A stretch of DNA of 7,415 nt from a virus (Duplodnaviria; Heunggongvirae; Uroviricota; Caudoviricetes): positions 1 through 7,415 of IMG/VR virus record IMGVR_UViG_2617270973_000012; one strand, given 5' to 3'. The notes under the pieces were generated by a model. The model did not search any database. It saw only the letters and a program-made list of their open reading frames with translations, and was not told where the DNA came from. A program made the position numbers and the translations under genes. Shown here in pieces: positions 1-7,415 of this stretch (its first letter is position 1; every line of letters begins with the position of its first letter).

Positions 1-708
1 ATGTGGGTCAATAAGTATATTGACGATTGCACTGATGAGGATTTAAACGATCGTGACTTTATTGCATCAGTTGTTGACCGGGCTATTTTTCATTTCGCGA
101 TTAATAGTATATGTAATCTTGGGGATAATAAAGATGCAATGCCCATTGAACAATGTACTTTTGATGTAGAAACTAAGAATGACCTTCCCTCCACGGTTCA
201 GCTATTTTATGAGGAATCTAAGGATAATGAACCTTTAGCGAATATACATTTTCAAGCAATAGGTTCTGGTTTTTTAACGTTTGTTAATGCCTGCCAGGAA
301 CATGATGACAACAGCTTAAAATTATTTGCTTCGCTGTTAATTTCACTTTCATATTCTAGTGCCTACGCAGATTTATCAGAAACAGTGTATATTAATGAAA
401 ATAATGAGAGCTACCTGAAAGCTCAGTTTGAAAAATTATCTCAACGTGATATGAAGAAGTACCTGGGAGAGATGAAGCGTCTGGCTGATGGGGGAGAAAT
501 GAATTTTGATGGCTATCTGGATAAGATGTCACATCTGGTGAATGAAGGAACGCTCGATCCTGATATTTTAAGCAAAATGCGAGATGCTGCACCACAATTA
601 ATTAGCTTCGCGAAGTCGTTTGACCCAACCTCAAAGGAAGAGATTAAAATACTTACAGACACTTCTAAATTAATTTATGATTTGTTCGGGGTTAAATCGG
701 AGAAATAA
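1..708 (+). CDS. Hypothetical protein, 235 aa, AT-rich; possibly the 3' part of a longer gene cut by the window edge
   Basis: Open frame from ATG at position 1 to TAA at 706-708, followed by a hairpin plus T-run terminator. No motif I recognise. Composition is clearly AT-rich compared with the prophage core. Because the ORF begins exactly at the window edge, the true start may lie upstream. Confidence 0.55.
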   Translation: MWVNKYIDDCTDEDLNDRDFIASVVDRAIFHFAINSICNLGDNKDAMPIEQCTFDVETKNDLPSTVQLFYEESKDNEPLANIHFQAIGSGFLTFVNACQEHDDNSLKLFASLLISLSYSSAYADLSETVYINENNESYLKAQFEKLSQRDMKKYLGEMKRLADGGEMNFDGYLDKMSHLVNEGTLDPDILSKMRDAAPQLISFAKSFDPTSKEEIKILTDTSKLIYDLFGVKSEK

Positions 709-749
709 TATGTGAAGTTCTTCGATAGTATGGAAGGCATTATATAAAA

Positions 750-778
750 GGACCCAATATTTATTGGGTTCTTTTTTC
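750..778 (+). terminator. Rho-independent terminator after the 1-708 ORF
   Basis: GGACCCAATA / TATTGGGTTC imperfect inverted repeat (one mismatch or G-U pair) followed directly by TTTTTT (772-777), about 40 nt after the stop codon. Confidence 0.7.
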
Positions 779-1294
779 TCTATCAATGCTATTAGCAGGG
801 AGATATATCACCAGAGTTTAATGTGTGATTTTTTATTTATCGTCGAACCTGGATTGTTTATCATTGGCCTTAACAAAGTTAACGGCTAATAAGATTATTT
901 CCATCACTTCGTGAGAGCTTCATGCCTTGAGAGGATCTCAATTTTCTTTTGCAATGAGACAGGCGCTTCCTGTTGTTATGGTATAGTACCCCGCTATTGA
1001 GCCTCCTGAACAGTGATGCTGAATAACATAACCCCATGATATATCGATAAAATAATCTCTACATTTGAAAATGCACGGTAATTCTGAAATGCAAAAAATC
1101 AACCAAACCAGCGCAATGCCTGAAAAAACTGACGTTCACTGGAGTGGTCGGTTTAGCGTTGCACCAATGCTCGATAGGATGTATCGTTTTTGAAAAACAA
1201 TTGGTTATGTGTTTTGTGGGAGCCTATTGGGAACCTATCAAAAGATTTTTTGTCATAGCAGTGTGAGATGCAAAACACTGTGATGGTCGCTTTG

Positions 1295-1322
1295 TTGACA
1301 TCGCAACTTCTGCAGGTATAAT
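1295..1322 (+). promoter_or_regulatory. Near-consensus sigma70 promoter for the DUF4065/membrane-protein operon
   Basis: TTGACA at 1295-1300, a 16-nt spacer, then TATAAT at 1317-1322; both hexamers match consensus exactly. Predicted transcription start near 1329-1330, giving a roughly 150-nt leader before the ATG at 1480. Confidence 0.7.
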
Positions 1323-1479
1323 TCGCCACCAATTTGTAACCTGTGTATATGTACAGTTCTTTGCTGGTTATAAACACAGTGAATTGCTCTTGCAATCTTC
1401 CAAAATTTTTTTGTTCGTGCTAGGTTGAGATAACAGTGATGATACTGTTTGCACATTCAGTGTAATGAGGAGGGTGGTT

Positions 1480-1953
1480 ATGTACAGCCCGGTACAAATA
1501 GCCAATAAATTCATAACGTTGGGAAACCAACATCATAATCCTCTGACCCACATGCAACTGCAGAAGCTTACTTATATTGCACATGGTTACTATTTAGCAT
1601 TAACAGGTAAGCCTTTGCTCAATGAATGTGTCTCCGCGTGGAAGTACGGTCCAGTTATTCCTGGAATGTACGATGCTTTCAAAGATTATGGGAATAAACC
1701 TGTTACGAATGTAGCAGTAGCTCCTTTTGGTGGCATTGTTACTATGGATCCACAAGCAGAGAGCATTATAGGGGCTGTTTATAAATTTTACGGCTCGAAA
1801 AATGGAATTGAGTTATCAACTCTAACTCATATGCCTGGTACGCCTTGGTCACAAGCTTATAATGGTATTGGCTCGTCAATCATCTCAAATGATGCGATCA
1901 AGGCTTATTATCATGATTTATTGAATAACCGACAGCAATGTCAGGGCCTCTGA
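1480..1953 (+). CDS. Panacea-domain (DUF4065 / COG3600 GepA / SocA-like) protein, putative PanA-type antitoxin, 157 aa
   Basis: The segment LQKLTYIAHGYYLALTGKPLLNECVSAWKYGPVIPGMYDAF resembles the conserved core of DUF4065/Panacea proteins as I recall it. AGGAGG at 1468-1473 lies 6 nt upstream of ATG 1480. The ORF-track start at 1465 is an in-frame ATG sitting inside this ribosome-binding site, so I moved the start to 1480. Stop is TGA at 1951-1953. Confidence 0.6.
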   Translation: MYSPVQIANKFITLGNQHHNPLTHMQLQKLTYIAHGYYLALTGKPLLNECVSAWKYGPVIPGMYDAFKDYGNKPVTNVAVAPFGGIVTMDPQAESIIGAVYKFYGSKNGIELSTLTHMPGTPWSQAYNGIGSSIISNDAIKAYYHDLLNNRQQCQGL

Positions 1954-1975
1954 AAAAGTAATATTCAGGGATGAC

Positions 1976-2524
1976 ATGTCTCACAATTCAGATATCTATA
2001 AACTTATCGGAGCGGCCGCAGGTGTTGAAAATGGTCGCTCTGAAGCATCCTTAAACTCTACTGACAGTCAAGAACAGATTTTTAAATCTGCATTTGAGCC
2101 GTCTAATCATGAGAGCGACGATGATTCTTCTTCAGAAAATAAAGCTATTCTGGAGGCAGAAGAGTTTGGTTCTAATACTGGTGCATTGCATGAGTTTATG
2201 CAGCAGAACAGAATGGACAGTCTTCAAGCTCAGCTTGATATGCTCAAATCACAAGTACGGGATAAGATAGCTGACGCAACTGGTAAAGAAATAGACAATG
2301 AGCTTCGGACAAAAATGGCCTCATTCACGGTTTGGTTTATGTCGTGTTGGTGCTTATTCGTTGTCGCAATGTTTACATCGTTTCTTATTGCACATGAAGG
2401 AAAGCCTCCAGTTGAAGCGATCGTTGCATTACTAGGTACAAGTACAATTAGTATTGTTGGTTTGGTTGGTTTCGTTGTTAGTGGATTGTTCAAATCAAGA
2501 AAAGATAGTGATAAAGAAAAATAA
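1976..2524 (+). CDS. Membrane protein, 182 aa: acidic N-terminal region, coiled-coil-like middle, two C-terminal TM helices; candidate toxin/effector partner of the upstream gene
   Basis: Starts 22 nt after the upstream stop, with a weak GGGA ribosome-binding site. The N-terminus is rich in D/E/S (ESDDDSSSENKAILEAEEF). Two hydrophobic stretches, FTVWFMSCWCLFVVAMFTSFLIA and AIVALLGTSTISIVGLVGFVVSGLF, are followed by a basic tail KSRKDSDKEK. No family recognised. Confidence 0.6.
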   Translation: MSHNSDIYKLIGAAAGVENGRSEASLNSTDSQEQIFKSAFEPSNHESDDDSSSENKAILEAEEFGSNTGALHEFMQQNRMDSLQAQLDMLKSQVRDKIADATGKEIDNELRTKMASFTVWFMSCWCLFVVAMFTSFLIAHEGKPPVEAIVALLGTSTISIVGLVGFVVSGLFKSRKDSDKEK

Positions 2525-2544
2525 CCCGTACATATACGGGTTAT
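2521..2544. terminator. Bidirectional rho-independent terminator between convergent transcription units
   Basis: Perfect 10-bp inverted repeat ATAACCCGTA (2521-2530) / TACGGGTTAT (2535-2544) with loop CATA. An A-run lies upstream (a U-tract for minus-strand transcripts) and a T-rich stretch downstream. It overlaps the TAA stop of the plus-strand gene and sits 14 nt from the stop of the minus-strand PrtN-like gene. Confidence 0.75.
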
Positions 2545-2557
2545 CCATAGTTTTAGT

Positions 2558-2830
2558 TTAGTTATATTTTTGTTTTTCCGTTCTGACTTTTTCCCACTCA
2601 GCTCGCCCTTCTTCCCGTCTTTTGTCAATATATTCCGCAAGATCCTGAATGTTGATGCAGCGTTTTGCTTTTTGTGATGTACCGATGCGATATGTAGGTA
2701 CAGGCAACTTACAAGCGTTTGCTTTTGCTTCTGCTGTGGCTGGACTCATACCAAAGTATTTTTGACTAACTGCTGAGAGTTCAATGTTTGGGGTATTGAA
2801 TTCAGCCATCAGTAAAAACAAGGTGTTCAT
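2558..2830 (-). CDS. PrtN-family / excisionase-like small DNA-binding protein, 90 aa
   Basis: Small basic protein at the distal end of the leftward operon. Sequence MNTLFLLMAEFNTPNIELSAVSQKYFGMSPATAEAKANACKLPVPTYRIG resembles the pyocin-activator PrtN family, often annotated as phage excisionase. I moved the start from the ORF-track GTG at 2857 to ATG at 2828-2830, which has GGAG 6 nt upstream. Confidence 0.55.
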   Translation of the reverse strand: MNTLFLLMAEFNTPNIELSAVSQKYFGMSPATAEAKANACKLPVPTYRIGTSQKAKRCINIQDLAEYIDKRREEGRAEWEKVRTEKQKYN

Positions 2831-2866
2831 AATTTTCTCCATCAAAACCGGCTGCACCCGGGAAAA

Positions 2867-3439
2867 TCATAATTCTGTGCTGGTGGCAGGAATTAGTTTC
2901 TGCCAGATAGCGGAAACATATTTTGCCTGATGACGGGCATCAGCCAGGGCGTTGTGCCGTTCTCCATCGAAAGGCATGTCCATTTTTGGGTCGAATCCGA
3001 TGGAACGCCCAAGCGTAACGATCGTGCGTACATCGTGGTCATTCCAGTACGCCCACGGGCAGATTTGTCCTGCTCGCTCGTAAGCTCCACGTAAAATTAC
3101 GTTGTCGAAGGTGGCCCCGTTACCCCAGACTTTTAAATATTTTGTATTGTCTGCATGCTGATTAATGAAATGGCTCAGTTCAGAGAGTGCATCGCTGATC
3201 GACAAAGTATCATCAATACAGATTGCAGCTCGTGCTTCAGAGCTCTGTTTCAACCACCACAGGATGGTATCGCCGTCAGGTGTAGCTCCTTGCCCCATAG
3301 CACTTTCCAGGCTAACAACCGTATAGAATTCTTGTCCGATGTCTCCGGTTTCTGGAGTGAAGAACACCGCGCCAATGGAAACGATCGGTGCATCCTTATT
3401 TTTCCCCATCGTCTCAAGGTCGATCATTAAGTTATTCAT
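2867..3439 (-). CDS. DnaQ-like DEDDh 3'-5' exonuclease, phage-type, 190 aa
   Basis: Exo I motif IDLETMG, Exo II WGNGATFDNVIL and Exo III HNALADA (H-x4-D) are all present. GGAGG ribosome-binding site. The start ATG overlaps the stop of the upstream gene (TAATG). Confidence 0.7.
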   Translation of the reverse strand: MNNLMIDLETMGKNKDAPIVSIGAVFFTPETGDIGQEFYTVVSLESAMGQGATPDGDTILWWLKQSSEARAAICIDDTLSISDALSELSHFINQHADNTKYLKVWGNGATFDNVILRGAYERAGQICPWAYWNDHDVRTIVTLGRSIGFDPKMDMPFDGERHNALADARHQAKYVSAIWQKLIPATSTEL

Positions 3440-4263
3440 TACTTCACCTCCTGCGGCGGTTCCGGTAGCGGCATCCAGTGGGTTACTTTCAATGCCGGTT
3501 CTTCCCCATCGTCAGTAACTGCCCACCATTTGTTTCTCGAACAATCGTAATATCCTTCGAAGGTATCGCACTCAGTCCAGCCGTAAGACTTACCCCAACA
3601 CCAAACATATTGTTTATCGTTCGGCATTCGCTCACTACAGCTTATCCAACTATCCGGAGTTACCGGATAGTTGCGCATTGCGACCTTTAATGCCTCATAG
3701 AAGCAACCTTTCAGATTGTTGAACTGACGCCCATTAAGAGGACCGTGTTCAGTAAGCATGTTGCGTAATTTCCATGCCGCGTCGTTTACTTCGTTGGATG
3801 ACAGGGGAGGCAACTTGTAAGTTTGGCTTACAGGTTCGGCACCATGAAGCATGGCGCCGCTCCGCTCTATGCCATCCAGCGCGATTCGCAGTGCCTGAAT
3901 TGTGGTAGAGCTATCGTTTGGGGCTATTCCATATCGCTCGAATACAGCTAAATGGTTGCGCATAATCTCAGGCGTAAGCTCTTTGTAAGCATAAGCAAGA
4001 GGCTCTGATGCATTATCCGGCACAACCGACGCAGGCGCGGCAGCATAAACAGGAATAACGTCCGCTTGCTCTTTATTGCTTTCATCCGTTAAAGCCCAGA
4101 ATAATTTCCCGGCCGGATGTTTGAAAATATAAGCAACTGGATCTGCTTCCAGCGATGCCAGTGCAATTTCATAAGCACGGCGCTCAATATTGTCTCGAAC
4201 GTCCAAGCTGCCTATGCGCTCTTTGATTTCTTTAATCAGTTCTTTGTCGGTAAAATTGGTCAT
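3439..4263 (-). CDS. Phage protein with C-terminal DUF551-like domain, 274 aa
   Basis: The C-terminus is Trp/Cys-rich and ends VTHWMPLPEPP, typical of DUF551 phage proteins as I recall them. AAGGAG ribosome-binding site 6 nt upstream of ATG 4261-4263. N-terminal half not recognised. Confidence 0.5.
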   Translation of the reverse strand: MTNFTDKELIKEIKERIGSLDVRDNIERRAYEIALASLEADPVAYIFKHPAGKLFWALTDESNKEQADVIPVYAAAPASVVPDNASEPLAYAYKELTPEIMRNHLAVFERYGIAPNDSSTTIQALRIALDGIERSGAMLHGAEPVSQTYKLPPLSSNEVNDAAWKLRNMLTEHGPLNGRQFNNLKGCFYEALKVAMRNYPVTPDSWISCSERMPNDKQYVWCWGKSYGWTECDTFEGYYDCSRNKWWAVTDDGEEPALKVTHWMPLPEPPQEVK

Positions 4264-4273
4264 GTGTTACTCC

Positions 4274-4537
4274 TTAACCCGCAGTGCTTTCAACTGACGA
4301 GGGGAACAAAATCTTTTCATCAAATCCGGCATTCATATCATGGACAGCAACACACCAATCCATTGACGAACGATTATCAAGAGCCTCCATGATTTCATCC
4401 ATGCGGCGTAGGTCATACAGGTAAATATTTTTATCGCCAATGGTGTAAAAACCAATTTTTTTCGGTGATGGACAGCGATCAATAACGTCCTGTAATTCGT
4501 TCAACCATGCCTGTTCTTTTTTTGTCAAAGTTGCCAT
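4274..4537 (-). CDS. Hypothetical phage early protein, 87 aa
   Basis: ATG at 4535-4537 is preceded by AAGGA. The ORF-track extension to 4627 would overlap the upstream gene and has no ribosome-binding site. Stop TAA at 4274-4276. Confidence 0.5.
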   Translation of the reverse strand: MATLTKKEQAWLNELQDVIDRCPSPKKIGFYTIGDKNIYLYDLRRMDEIMEALDNRSSMDWCVAVHDMNAGFDEKILFPSSVESTAG

Positions 4538-4538
4538 A

Positions 4539-4757
4539 TCAGTTTTCCTTATACGGATTAATTTTATTGTGCAGTGTGTTGAACGACGCCCATACCACGT
4601 CGTTATACAATTCAATAACTGGCTCAATTATTTTCCCGATTGCCCAGACAAAAATTAGCGGGGATATCGGTATCATCAACACGATAAACAGAATGAGAAA
4701 CAGGAATTCTGTCGTTCTACTCTTTCGCGGATATTCTTTTCTGAATAATGTCGGCAC
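4539..4757 (-). CDS. Small single-TM membrane protein, 72 aa, GTG start
   Basis: AAGGAG lies 7 nt upstream of GTG 4755-4757. Hydrophobic helix FLFLILFIVLMIPISPLIFVWAIG. Stop-start spacing with neighbouring genes is 1-2 nt. Confidence 0.45.
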   Translation of the reverse strand: MPTLFRKEYPRKSRTTEFLFLILFIVLMIPISPLIFVWAIGKIIEPVIELYNDVVWASFNTLHNKINPYKEN

Positions 4758-4758
4758 A

Positions 4759-5091
4759 TCACTCTCCTTTGATGCGAATGCCAGCGACGCGTAGTGCGTG
4801 TTCTAAGTCAATCAGGCAAAGCCAACTGCCATTTTCTTTAGGTATCATGACATGTCGCTTATCAGCATTTATTGGGTGCCCATATCGAAGGTCGTAGCGA
4901 GTCGGTAATTGAACTTCCCTCGCTTCCAGTTCTGTAATGCGTTTGTTTTTAGCTTCTAGTTCATCCAGCAGCGCCAGCACAACCTGCGGTGTGACTTTCA
5001 TACGAAATGCCAGCAATTTTTGTGGTGTGGCTACTATTTTTATTGCTTCTGCCGCCTCACGCAGTGCCTGATAGTTAATTTTGGTTGTCAT
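4759..5091 (-). CDS. Hypothetical phage early protein, 110 aa, coiled-coil segment
   Basis: ATG 5089-5091 overlaps the upstream stop (ATGA). GAGGTGG ribosome-binding site. Heptad-like segment LLDELEAKNKRITELEAREVQL. Family not securely recognised. Confidence 0.5.
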   Translation of the reverse strand: MTTKINYQALREAAEAIKIVATPQKLLAFRMKVTPQVVLALLDELEAKNKRITELEAREVQLPTRYDLRYGHPINADKRHVMIPKENGSWLCLIDLEHALRVAGIRIKGE

Positions 5092-5966
5092 GCCACCACC
5101 TCTTCGAATTTCAACTCCAATTGATCACCCCAGATTTCACATGACTCTGAACACGAGCCGGTATCGAATCGCCTGGCTTGCACCATCGCCTGATACAAAT
5201 TTCTGTAGTCGCTGTCGGCATACATTCTGGCAATCCCGTCAAGACTCAGATGACCACGGTACATAACGTCTTTATCTGTCTTTCGGTGACCATCCCGGAC
5301 GTGTTTACCTGTAACCAGCTCATTAAAAACTCTCATCAGACCAGGTTCGTCTTTACATGCAAGCCCCAGCTTTTGCGTGGACTTTTTGATGCAGAAAACA
5401 CAGTTCCCGAGGTGCTCCGGGATTTGCAAATCAAAAGGTTGTTTATGCCACCACCGGATAACATCCGACTTATCAAAATCAGATAGCTCGGCAAGATACC
5501 GGACGCCTGATTTCGGTTTCAGCCTACGAGGTTCGTCTGCACGAATACCCAGCCATGTGATGTAATTCCCTCGTCCGAAATGGTCATCGCAGTATTTTGT
5601 GAAGGGGGTGAGTTTTAATCTGTCAGTGCAGAACGCGCCGCCGATGTATGGCGTGCCATATTTTTTTACCATGTCCATAAACGGTTTAAGCACCGGCATT
5701 CGCGTCTGAATATCCTTTGGTTCCCATTCCGTATAACCATTTGGCTGCCCAAGCTCTGGATTTATATCGACCTGCAACACAGTTAGCGGTATGCCCCAGA
5801 ACTTCACAACCTCCCGAATAAAGCGGTATGTCAGCGGATGTTCGCAACCGGTATCCATAAAGATGTAGCAGACGTTATTACCAGCCTTTCTTTGTTCTTC
5901 CATCAGGTGAACAAGATATGCAGATGTTCTCCCGCCAGAAAAACTAACTACATGAGTTATGCACAT
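5088..5966 (-). CDS. PAPS-reductase-family (PF01507-like) PP-loop protein, 292 aa
   Basis: PP-loop-like SFSGGRTS near the N-terminus. The segment IFMDTGCEHPLTYRFIREV parallels the CysH-family motif (TDTG...ETYRFI). Common in lambdoid prophage early regions. Confidence 0.7.
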   Translation of the reverse strand: MCITHVVSFSGGRTSAYLVHLMEEQRKAGNNVCYIFMDTGCEHPLTYRFIREVVKFWGIPLTVLQVDINPELGQPNGYTEWEPKDIQTRMPVLKPFMDMVKKYGTPYIGGAFCTDRLKLTPFTKYCDDHFGRGNYITWLGIRADEPRRLKPKSGVRYLAELSDFDKSDVIRWWHKQPFDLQIPEHLGNCVFCIKKSTQKLGLACKDEPGLMRVFNELVTGKHVRDGHRKTDKDVMYRGHLSLDGIARMYADSDYRNLYQAMVQARRFDTGSCSESCEIWGDQLELKFEEVVA

Positions 5967-6493
5967 TTGCGTAATTCCGATAACTCGTTGAAGCGTGCCA
6001 TAAACATCCCGTAGGCATGGCCCGGTGCCAGTGGAATCACGTTGAACATCTCTGTTGCCGGGATGCCTTCTAGTACAGGCCAGAAAGAGCCATCATCAAG
6101 CCCGAGATCGCGGCGTTCGGTTGCCAGCATGATGAGATCGGCATATTTCACGGGTGTACTCATAACCGGGGGTAACCCGTATTTCTCACGGATTACGGCG
6201 TCTATTTTTTCTTCCATCCGTTTATAGTCAGGAAGAAGGCGTTTCAGTGGAGCGGGAATATCCTGGCAATACGCTTCTGTTGCATCATGCATTAACGCTT
6301 CAAAAGCAAATTCCTGCGGCACCAGCTGGCTGCAAAGCACCGCATGCTGGGCGACACTGTAGAAGTGTGAAAGATGTCCTGCAAAGCGACAGATATTTGA
6401 AAGGGAAACCGCGATATCGTTAATAACGATGTCGTCTTTATTTATCTTGTCATAATAAAAATGCTTCCCGGAAAAAGTTTTAATAAATGACAT
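5957..6493 (-). CDS. yfdR: HD-domain phosphohydrolase (YfbR/YfdR-like 5'-deoxynucleotidase family), 178 aa
   Basis: His...His-Asp signature (SVAQHAV ... LMHDATEAY). Length and position next to a DUF2303 gene match CPS-53 yfdR as I recall it. I moved the start from the ORF-track GTG at 6520 to ATG 6491-6493, which has GGAG 6 nt upstream. Confidence 0.6.
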   Translation of the reverse strand: MSFIKTFSGKHFYYDKINKDDIVINDIAVSLSNICRFAGHLSHFYSVAQHAVLCSQLVPQEFAFEALMHDATEAYCQDIPAPLKRLLPDYKRMEEKIDAVIREKYGLPPVMSTPVKYADLIMLATERRDLGLDDGSFWPVLEGIPATEMFNVIPLAPGHAYGMFMARFNELSELRKCA

Positions 6494-6586
6494 TTTGTTC
6501 TCCACGTATATGCGCTGCACCGCGCTGAATTCTGGTAAAAGGAAGCCCTCACCATCCGGCGATTATTGAGTAAATTATGTTTCCAT

Positions 6587-6608
6587 AAATGCCCCCGCAG
6601 GGGCATTT
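6587..6608. other. Perfect 9-bp-stem hairpin in the intergenic region between the DUF2303 and HD genes
   Basis: AAATGCCCC (6587-6595), loop CGCA, GGGGCATTT (6600-6608). No clean U-tract on either strand, so a terminator role is uncertain. Confidence 0.4.
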
Positions 6609-6620
6609 GCAGTAATGAAA

Positions 6621-7415
6621 TCAGGCGGTGAAAGTACCAATAAAGGTTTCTACTTTGCTGTCTTTAAATTTCTCAACAAGCAGATCACGAAATTCGTTAG
6701 CCATTTCTTCCTGCACCGCTTCCAGCTGAATAATGCGCAGAACCAGTACAGGACGATCGCCAGTGATAATGCTGAGGCGTAATTTAAACGGACGTTCTTT
6801 CAGGCCTTCAAACGGAACGCATTTAAATTCAAATGCCACTGGCATAATGTCTTTGGTCTTCGCTTCGACAGACTCCATCAGAGAGCGTTTGCCGCTGAAG
6901 TCATTGTCTTCAAAATCAGCGGTCTGGTTCGCTTCAATTGTGATTTTACGGACCGCCGCAGCCGCTTTGGTTGCCTGAATGGCGTCACCATTAGCATCAA
7001 AGCCCACAAGGTAGTCGGCCCAGTCTTCAATCCATTCTGCCAGTGACTTCTGGGAGTTACGCTCGCCATTAACAGACAACAGAGCAGAAAACGGTGCTGT
7101 CTTTTTCAGTTTGAGGGTGGCGGTGTTATCTGCGTGACCTGGTTCATCAATAGTCCCCAGGTTAAGCACACTGACGGCTCGCATATTATCGGCATCGATA
7201 AAGCAGCGGGTGCCTTCATCTGCAAGATCTTTAGAATAACGGGTAAAGTCATCGATGCTGGCAGTGGAAAGCGCACCACGGAAACGGAAGCGATTTAAAT
7301 TAAATTTTTCCAGATCATGAATGCGGAAATTCTCAGGCAATGCCACAGCATCGGCACCAATCTTACTAATAATTTCATTAACACCCTGAGCAGAAATAAG
7401 GGCATGGATTTGATT
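6621..7415 (-). CDS. yfdQ: DUF2303-family protein (YfdQ-like), 5' end beyond the window
   Basis: I translated the minus-strand frame beyond the ORF-track GTG at 7346 and it stays open to the window edge (…[30 protein letters not shown]…). The resulting length of at least 264 aa is consistent with the roughly 274-aa YfdQ family. Stop at 6621. Confidence 0.55.

Follow-up and report, generated by a model that had tools for sequence, protein, structure and literature searches.

The right third of the DNA analysed here carries, in direct succession and all on the minus strand, a gene of the DUF2303 family (yfdQ), a gene for an HD-domain protein (yfdR), and a gene of the 3'-phosphoadenosine 5'-phosphosulfate (PAPS) reductase family that we call NinC-like, after its homologue in phage lambda. 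The DNA consists of positions 1 to 7,415 of the IMG/VR virus record IMGVR_UViG_2617270973_000012. This whole stretch of 7,415 nucleotides, referred to below as the window, comes from an Escherichia coli prophage of the CPS-53/SfV-like kind, and the three genes belong to its early-left operon. The question raised by the locus is whether three such neighbours form one functional system, as the original prediction on this DNA had suggested, or whether they are separate modules that share an operon.

The answer that we favour, and that we regard as probable though far from assured, is that the region is a mosaic joint within the early-left operon, at which a module for the takeover of host replication lies beside a swappable, probably DNA-directed, anti-restriction enzyme. 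The parts of this answer do not all have the same strength, and they are weighed separately in the sections that follow.

Three neighbours and their separate distributions

The locus contains the following features, listed in the order of transcription:

6621..>7415, minus strand: yfdQ, DUF2303 / YfdQ family; the window stops short of its first 10 codons
6591..6604, minus strand: GC-rich hairpin GCCCC-TGCG-GGGGC followed by ATTTAT, 15 nucleotides past the yfdQ stop, in the yfdQ-yfdR spacer
5957..6493, minus strand: yfdR, HD-domain protein annotated as a 5'-deoxynucleotidase; ATG at 6493, the mechanical open reading frame (ORF) reaching an upstream GTG at 6520
5088..5966, minus strand: NinC-like PP-loop protein ('PAPS reductase family') of 292 amino acids, with PF01507, phrog_424 and lambda NinC homology
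4759..5091, minus strand: ead/Ea22-like gene, next in the operon; PF13935, E-value (E) 7e-12

The original prediction had announced three consecutive genes with these domains, and all three are present where it placed them, with profile matches for each. In RefSeq, the trio is annotated in 272 complete E. coli genomes: these are strongly conserved genes, and chance ORFs are excluded. Their packing is tight. Read from the sequence, the yfdR stop and the NinC-like start overlap by 10 nucleotides, the NinC-like stop and the ead/Ea22-like start overlap as ATGA, and the spacer of 127 nucleotides between yfdQ and yfdR is the only sizeable intergenic gap of the operon. The hairpin found in this spacer may act as a weak terminator, or as a site of RNA processing, that would separate yfdQ from yfdR; a scan for consensus terminators did not flag it, because its T-tract is too short. 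In near-identical prophages, where yfdP lies just beyond the point at which the window ends, the three genes follow a cI/LexA-like repressor gene, share its strand, and run towards xis. It is this synteny that places them in the early-left operon, and it bears out the prediction of an early phage operon.

It would be natural to conjecture that the PP-loop enzyme, the HD hydrolase and the DUF2303 protein serve a single pathway of nucleotide-pool manipulation, DNA modification or counter-defence. The genes are contiguous and co-oriented, the overlap of 10 nucleotides suggests translational coupling between yfdR and the NinC-like gene, the arrangement recurs in the 272 genomes, and a divergent DUF2303 gene is found near a NinC-like gene in Shiga toxin (Stx)-type phages. 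The original prediction itself named an independent distribution of the genes as evidence that would tell against it, and we therefore turn to the neighbourhoods of each of them.

Three sets of loci were compared: 80 viral-contig loci with a NinC-like gene (38-99% identity), with a neighbourhood of 6 kilobases (kb); 80 E. coli-type viral loci with yfdQ; and 70 genome loci with yfdQ, taken from different Enterobacterales species (53-100% identity). Among the 70 species-level yfdQ loci, yfdP occurs in 68, while yfdR adjoins yfdQ in 51 and is found within 6 kb in six others; the NinC-like gene is present in none of the 70. Seen from the other side, yfdR lies directly upstream of the NinC-like gene in only 11 of its 80 loci, all of them E. 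coli alleles with 94% identity or more, and about 65 of the 80 have neither yfdR nor yfdQ within 6 kb. When the slot that follows yfdR is examined in the 80 E. coli-type viral loci, it holds YfdS in 58, the NinC-like protein in 9, and something else in 12. We considered whether YfdS might be a truncated NinC, and ruled this out: the two have no similarity. Complete E. coli genomes give a similar picture: of the 5426, 3086 have yfdQR DNA, 551 have the NinC-like gene, and the 272 already mentioned have all three genes contiguous; in the same genomes, the NinC-like gene is found at 74 plasmid places.

The limits of homology are as sharp as the counts. Homology with CPS-53 covers positions 5959-7415 of the window only, and ends at the start codon of the NinC-like gene. 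Homology with lambda ninC spans positions 5134-5953, and homology with a plasmid copy spans 5056-5955; the breakpoints of the NinC-like cassette are at 5959 and at about 5056-5085. From the distribution of the loci and from these breakpoints, we infer that the conserved unit is yfdP-yfdQ-yfdR, and that the NinC-like gene is exchanged at gene borders. The NinC-like gene is an independently mobile cassette, sitting in a slot that is held by yfdS in K-12 and in most E. coli prophages.

These results already largely refute the single pathway, which we now regard as very unlikely. Its genes are distributed independently, its slot usually holds yfdS, homology breaks exactly at a gene border, NinC is found elsewhere in the lambda nin region, on plasmids and in fusions with Dam, and the nucleotide affinities of YfdR, discussed below, are reported to be low. 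The part of the original prediction that read a meaning into the pairing of the three genes is not supported, and in its place a mosaic of independent modules, with no functional system made of three genes, is to our mind very probable. One observation pulls the other way: the divergent DUF2303 gene of the Stx-type phages, with 52% identity to YfdQ, stands two genes upstream of the NinC-like gene. Since these phages repeat the co-location, DUF2303 and NinC-like genes do seem to share a tendency to be early-left cargo.

Two of the other contexts merit a description. In Shigella phage Ss-VASD (locus L236, 3052-5379), and also in loci L014 and L015, a DUF2303 gene is followed by a gene of 148 amino acids that replaces yfdR, and then by a NinC-like gene at 93.8% identity. 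This Stx-type juxtaposition of DUF2303 and NinC is a second, independent one, and it has no HD protein. The E. coli plasmid pe1-39_A (locus L234, 98 kb) offers a third and different genomic context: at 4989-7151 it carries genes for an ASCH-domain protein and a HAD/PNKP-type phosphatase, then the NinC-like gene, then ead/Ea22-like genes.

yfdQ, yfdR and the initiation of host replication

The first of the two modules has near-identical counterparts in K-12. YfdQ matches PF10065 (E 3e-91) over positions 6-269 of the 269 of the profile, as well as phrog_210 (E 5e-117), and 262 of its 264 residues (99%) are identical to those of K-12 YfdQ (b2360, in CPS-53). YfdR is just as close to its K-12 counterpart b2361, with 176 of 178 residues identical (99%). 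It matches phrog_318 (E 3e-111), its Pfam matches to YfbR-like and HD_3 are sub-threshold only, and its HD ligands H50, H69-D70 and D119 align with those of the solved HD protein 2gz4 (E 2e-14). A structure of the YfdQ family is available in the Protein Data Bank (PDB), under entry 9o7m, 'YfdQ Protein', with 36 chains (E 2e-44); no paper on 9o7m or on electron cryo-microscopy of YfdQ was found in the literature searched. YfdP had no matches to PDB or Pfam, and neither YfdQ nor YfdR had a match in PADLOC.

What is known of function comes from K-12. Multicopy yfdQ and yfdR, together with yfdS or yfdT, suppress over-initiation and inhibit normal initiation at oriC (Noguchi & Katayama 2016, PMC4776307). 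Purified K-12 YfdR binds domain I of DnaA through Phe46, and partly competes with DiaA and DnaB (PMC4776307). Given the 99% identity of the proteins, the YfdR of the window would be expected to bind DnaA and to inhibit initiation as well. We thus propose that, during lytic growth, yfdP-yfdQ-yfdR could shut down host chromosome initiation, or redirect it, in favour of the phage. YfdR's affinities for nucleotides are reported to be far below those of YfbR (Zimmerman et al. 2008, as cited in PMC4776307), and for this reason the idea of a manipulated pool of deoxynucleoside triphosphates, which the original prediction had put forward on the strength of the HD domain, is weakened and must be considered weakly supported. 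Any activity of YfdR as a deoxynucleoside monophosphate phosphatase would be secondary.

Several points must be held against a takeover role. Deletion of yfdQRST in K-12 has no replication phenotype, and the authors themselves concede that the effect of overexpression may be an artefact (PMC4776307). The role rests on overexpression, and the model of YfdQ has no informative structural neighbour. Balancing these points against the binding data, we give yfdQ and yfdR an even chance of forming a replication-takeover module.

The NinC-like protein and its possible target

The second module is the enzyme downstream. Compared with lambda NinC, the NinC-like protein has 228 of 290 residues identical (79%), over the full length and with no gaps, and phrog_424 covers its whole length (E 2e-93). 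Its PP-loop, SGGRTS, is canonical. In an alignment of 40 members of the family, reaching down to 54% identity, residues S8, S10, G11, G12, R13 and S15 are invariant, as are cysteines C113, C126, C189, C192 and C276; C272 is present in 39 of the 40. Both C272 and C276 belong to a GSCSESCE motif, on a C-terminal tail that is disordered in the AlphaFold model, a model whose mean confidence score (predicted local distance difference test, pLDDT) is 86.

The family name raises a first alternative, according to which the protein is a true assimilatory reductase of PAPS or of adenosine 5'-phosphosulfate (APS), that is, an auxiliary metabolic gene of the cysH type that boosts the sulfur assimilation of the host. 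There is a Pfam match to PAPS_reduct (PF01507, E 4e-9), the nearest solved folds are the APS/PAPS reductases (APS reductase 2goy and CysH 6vpu), and PHROG files the family under 'auxiliary metabolic gene'. However, the Pfam match is confined to residues 5-72, the N-terminal quarter of the protein, and the structural matches have template modelling (TM) scores of just 0.38-0.48. With the NCBIfam CysH equivalog PRK02090, the score is 20.3 bits, where the cut-off stands at 154. When the profile of the NinC family was compared with PDB sequences, only the N-terminal region of CysH was matched, over about 100 residues, and in this alignment CysH reads SSSFG where the NinC family keeps SGGRTS, an ATP-type PP-loop. 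The C-terminal catalytic motif of CysH is ECGLH; it is absent from the C-terminus of the NinC-like protein, which reads GSCSESCE. An assimilatory reductase is thus extremely improbable here. A weak match of the single sequence to 'PptA' (21fy, E 0.56) did not recur in the search with the family profile and was dropped.

Other PP-loop enzymes also come into view. Of the profiles in the defence library, SspD matches best (E 1.5e-15), over positions 2-125 of 277 only, followed by the weaker BrxP (E 1e-4) and DndC (E about 1e-3). Among solved structures, the neighbours that come next after the reductases are the PP-loop sulfurtransferases LarE, MnmA, TtuA and NcsA, and also TilS. Taken together, motifs, folds and profiles suggest an ATP-dependent adenylating enzyme with an iron-sulfur (Fe-S) cluster, a cysteine-persulfide relay, or both.

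The links of the family with DNA methyltransferases bear on what such an enzyme might act upon. A fusion with a Dam methylase is found in 7 of the 80 NinC-like loci, and a Dam gene lies directly upstream in 4 of the 80; in Salmonella phage Oslo, the overlapping genes read ninB-Dam-NinC-ninD. We also considered the presence of a Dam-like ORF within 6 kb as a marker, and rejected it: such ORFs occur in 36 of 80 and 31 of 70 of the yfdQ loci that served as controls, and are thus as common there as around NinC. For that reason, only fusions and direct adjacency were kept as evidence. As these fusions with DNA methyltransferases recur, DNA rather than sulfate would be the target of the family. Two large proteins illustrate the range of architectures: a triple fusion of 977 amino acids, with a C5-cytosine DNA methylase, a NinC-like domain and a Dam methylase (locus L052, 4555-7485), and a protein of 851 amino acids, in which about 500 N-terminal residues with no assigned function precede the NinC-like domain (locus L050, 4498-7050). 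The window differs in this respect, with no Dam domain in the NinC-like protein of 292 amino acids and no Dam gene in the window.

The only functional lead for the NinC family is the escape of a Vibrio phage from Dnd. The NinC-like protein has 55% identity, over residues 3-282, with the PAPS domain of the Vibrio phage 44E38.1 protein p0018 (pairwise E 2e-110). Piel et al. moved p0018, which joins this PAPS domain to a Dam domain, into a sister phage together with the adjacent p0019, and the recipient escaped the Dnd system of its host. PAPS reductases encoded in Aca-regulated operons figure among the candidate anti-defence genes of a 2026 survey, which cites only Piel et al. for them. The published anti-Dnd protein of phage JSS1, JSS1_004, was also looked at and set aside, being an unrelated kinase/shutoff protein of the T7 gp0.7 type. 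No paper linking lambda NinC to phosphorothioation was found in the literature searched.

The mechanism that we have in mind would run as follows. The NinC-like enzyme would adenylate a nucleic-acid substrate, and would transfer sulfur to it through the Fe-S cluster, a cysteine-persulfide relay, or both. Its substrate would be the DNA of the phage, and the modification would serve as self-protection against phosphorothioate-based defences of the Dnd or Ssp type. The enzyme probably uses nucleoside triphosphatase (NTPase) and cysteine-desulfurase partners of the host, since it has none of its own.

Two alternatives share part of this evidence. In the first, the NinC-like protein works as a PP-loop thiolase or an adenylating enzyme, with RNA (tRNA, for example) or a small molecule as its substrate, and any effect on defence is indirect. 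The neighbours MnmA, TtuA, NcsA, LarE and TilS speak in favour of it, and the invariant CxxC with further cysteines resembles the arrangement of [4Fe-4S] thiolases. But the fusions and adjacencies are with DNA methyltransferases, both Dam and C5, the best defence profile is SspD, and the sole phenotype of a homologue is escape from Dnd, which targets DNA; we consider an RNA or small-molecule substrate unlikely. In the second alternative, the protein is a non-catalytic decoy or inhibitor, which imitates DndC or SspD and either poisons the Dnd/Ssp complexes of the host or ties up their partners. This would agree with its resemblance to the PP-loop half of SspD and DndC, with the lack of an NTPase partner of its own, and with the link of a homologue to Dnd escape. 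Yet the residues of the PP-loop and five cysteines remain invariant down to 54% identity, as expected of a working active site, and lambda is still restricted by Dnd, which makes a decoy distinctly unlikely.

The reading of the NinC-like protein as an enzyme that acts on phage DNA must itself face a number of difficulties. Its similarity to SspD, DndC and CysH is limited to the N-terminal PP-loop half, a limit that bears on the chemistry, and an Fe-S cluster is predicted from the invariant cysteines only. The three known systems of phosphorothioate synthesis all need a P-loop NTPase partner beside the PAPS-domain protein. Neither the window nor a 32-kb context from a prophage with 99.7% identity contains a P-loop NTPase (DndD/SspC/BrxC), a nickase or a cysteine desulfurase, all of them needed for phosphorothioate synthesis. 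The share of the PAPS domain in the escape from Dnd is not isolated, because the Dam-fused p0018 was swapped together with p0019. Lambda encodes NinC, and three Dnd systems still restrict it, with an efficiency of plating (EOP) of 0.016-0.3, the nin genotype of the stock being unstated.

With these points in the balance, a DNA-directed anti-restriction role of the NinC-like enzyme is plausible but falls short of an even chance, and the specific sulfur chemistry is doubtful. As for the DNA modification or counter-defence that the original prediction had proposed, it fares differently according to the unit considered: for the NinC-like gene alone it is the best-supported direction, through the homology with p0018 and the links with methyltransferases, and for the three genes together it is not sustained. 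The boldest form of our proposal would make the NinC family a stand-alone ATP-dependent enzyme that modifies DNA by inserting sulfur, or else a hijacker of Dnd/Ssp that marks phage DNA as 'self' and, separately, would make yfdP-yfdQ-yfdR a DnaA-targeting module built around a large YfdQ oligomer; in this full form it is speculative, and we would not expect it to hold.

The rest of the window and known relatives

Downstream of the ead/Ea22-like gene, three further genes of the leftward operon were identified:

3439..4263, minus strand: chimeric protein of 274 amino acids, with a YfdT-like N-terminus and a DUF551 C-terminus (E 3e-17, residues 205-271), three genes downstream of yfdR
2867..3439, minus strand: Rv2179c-like 3'-5' exo(ribo)nuclease, whose gene immediately precedes the excisionase-like one; PF16473, E 2e-75, and phrog_255
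2558..2857, minus strand: PrtN-family / excisionase-like protein, whose gene closes the leftward operon; PF11112, E 4e-23, and phrog_1300, E 6e-40

The chimera touches the takeover module. Over residues 1-42 it shares 81% identity with K-12 YfdT, and DUF551 is also found in YfdS; because the K-12 phenotype needed yfdS or yfdT, the early operon may keep the function of these genes in a fused form.

On the left, positions 1-1193 of the window are host chromosome, with a DUF2713 gene at 1-708 (PF10897, E 4e-166). An ORF of 42 codons at 1065-1193 ends in RFSVAPMLD, and matches a partial 'tRNA-dihydrouridine synthase', a 5' fragment of dusA, annotated at the corresponding position of a related genome. 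Because of this fragment, the prophage appears to be integrated at dusA, with its end near 1200. Near position 2700, the GC content climbs from about 37-40% to 46-49%. Between these landmarks lies a pair of genes on the plus strand (1465-2524), opposite to the early operon: the first (1465-1953) encodes a SocA/Panacea-domain antitoxin-like protein (PF13274, E 6e-18), and the second, 22 nucleotides after it, a protein of 182 amino acids with a hydrophobic C-terminus (phrog_13343). The pair looks like a toxin-antitoxin system of the PanA type, or defence cargo, at the prophage end; PADLOC gave no match for either protein.

What does the locus teach? Annotations of the three genes already exist for hundreds of E. 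coli genomes, experiments have been done on two of the genes, and ordinary lambdoid mosaicism accounts for their lying side by side. The original prediction called their function in prophages uncharacterised, which overlooks the binding of YfdR to DnaA, the inhibition of initiation by overexpressed yfdQRST, the existence of 9o7m, and the fact that lambda ninC is non-essential, with an EOP of 1.0 after complementation of the polarity on Q. Pipelines for phage annotation often class this 'PAPS reductase' among the auxiliary genes of sulfur metabolism; the family concerned is that of lambda NinC, and not CysH. NinC is among the lambda genes described as 'poorly understood', and the question of its role is directly testable in lambda and E. 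coli, with existing Dnd and Ssp strains. If NinC does mark DNA, one of the last unexplained genes of lambda would receive a function, and a new class of anti-restriction enzymes would be defined.

Comparison with known systems summarizes what the window shares with each of them. It shares with CPS-53 (KpLE1), whose genes read yfdP-yfdQ-yfdR-yfdS-yfdT, the order, the strand and the spacer of 127 nucleotides, with DNA 96% identical over 5959-7415; however, CPS-53 has yfdS after yfdR, where the window has the unrelated NinC-like gene. The same yfdQ-yfdR pair is found in Shigella phage SfV (orf29-31), SfIV, cdtI and many Stx phages. In the K-12 cluster yfdQRST, on which the experiments were done, yfdS and yfdT follow yfdR, which is not the case in the window.

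On the side of the enzyme, CysH shares with the window protein the N-terminal nucleotide-binding region and is the nearest fold, but the C-terminal half of the window protein is different and the cut-offs of the CysH family are missed. With DndC, SspD and BrxP, the protein has in common the N-terminal half that holds the PP-loop, a richness in cysteines, and a size near the 277 positions of the SspD profile, whereas it lacks a profile match over the whole protein and adjacent genes of the pathway. All the invariant motifs are found in p0018 of Vibrio phage 44E38.1, which is fused to Dam, while the window protein is a stand-alone domain. The closest parallel is lambda NinC (orf290), which has the same size, the same PP-loop and the same cysteine motifs. 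The two differ in their place: in lambda, ninC has ninB and ninD on either side, in the early-right nin region, and the copy of the window is in the early-left operon, after yfdR.

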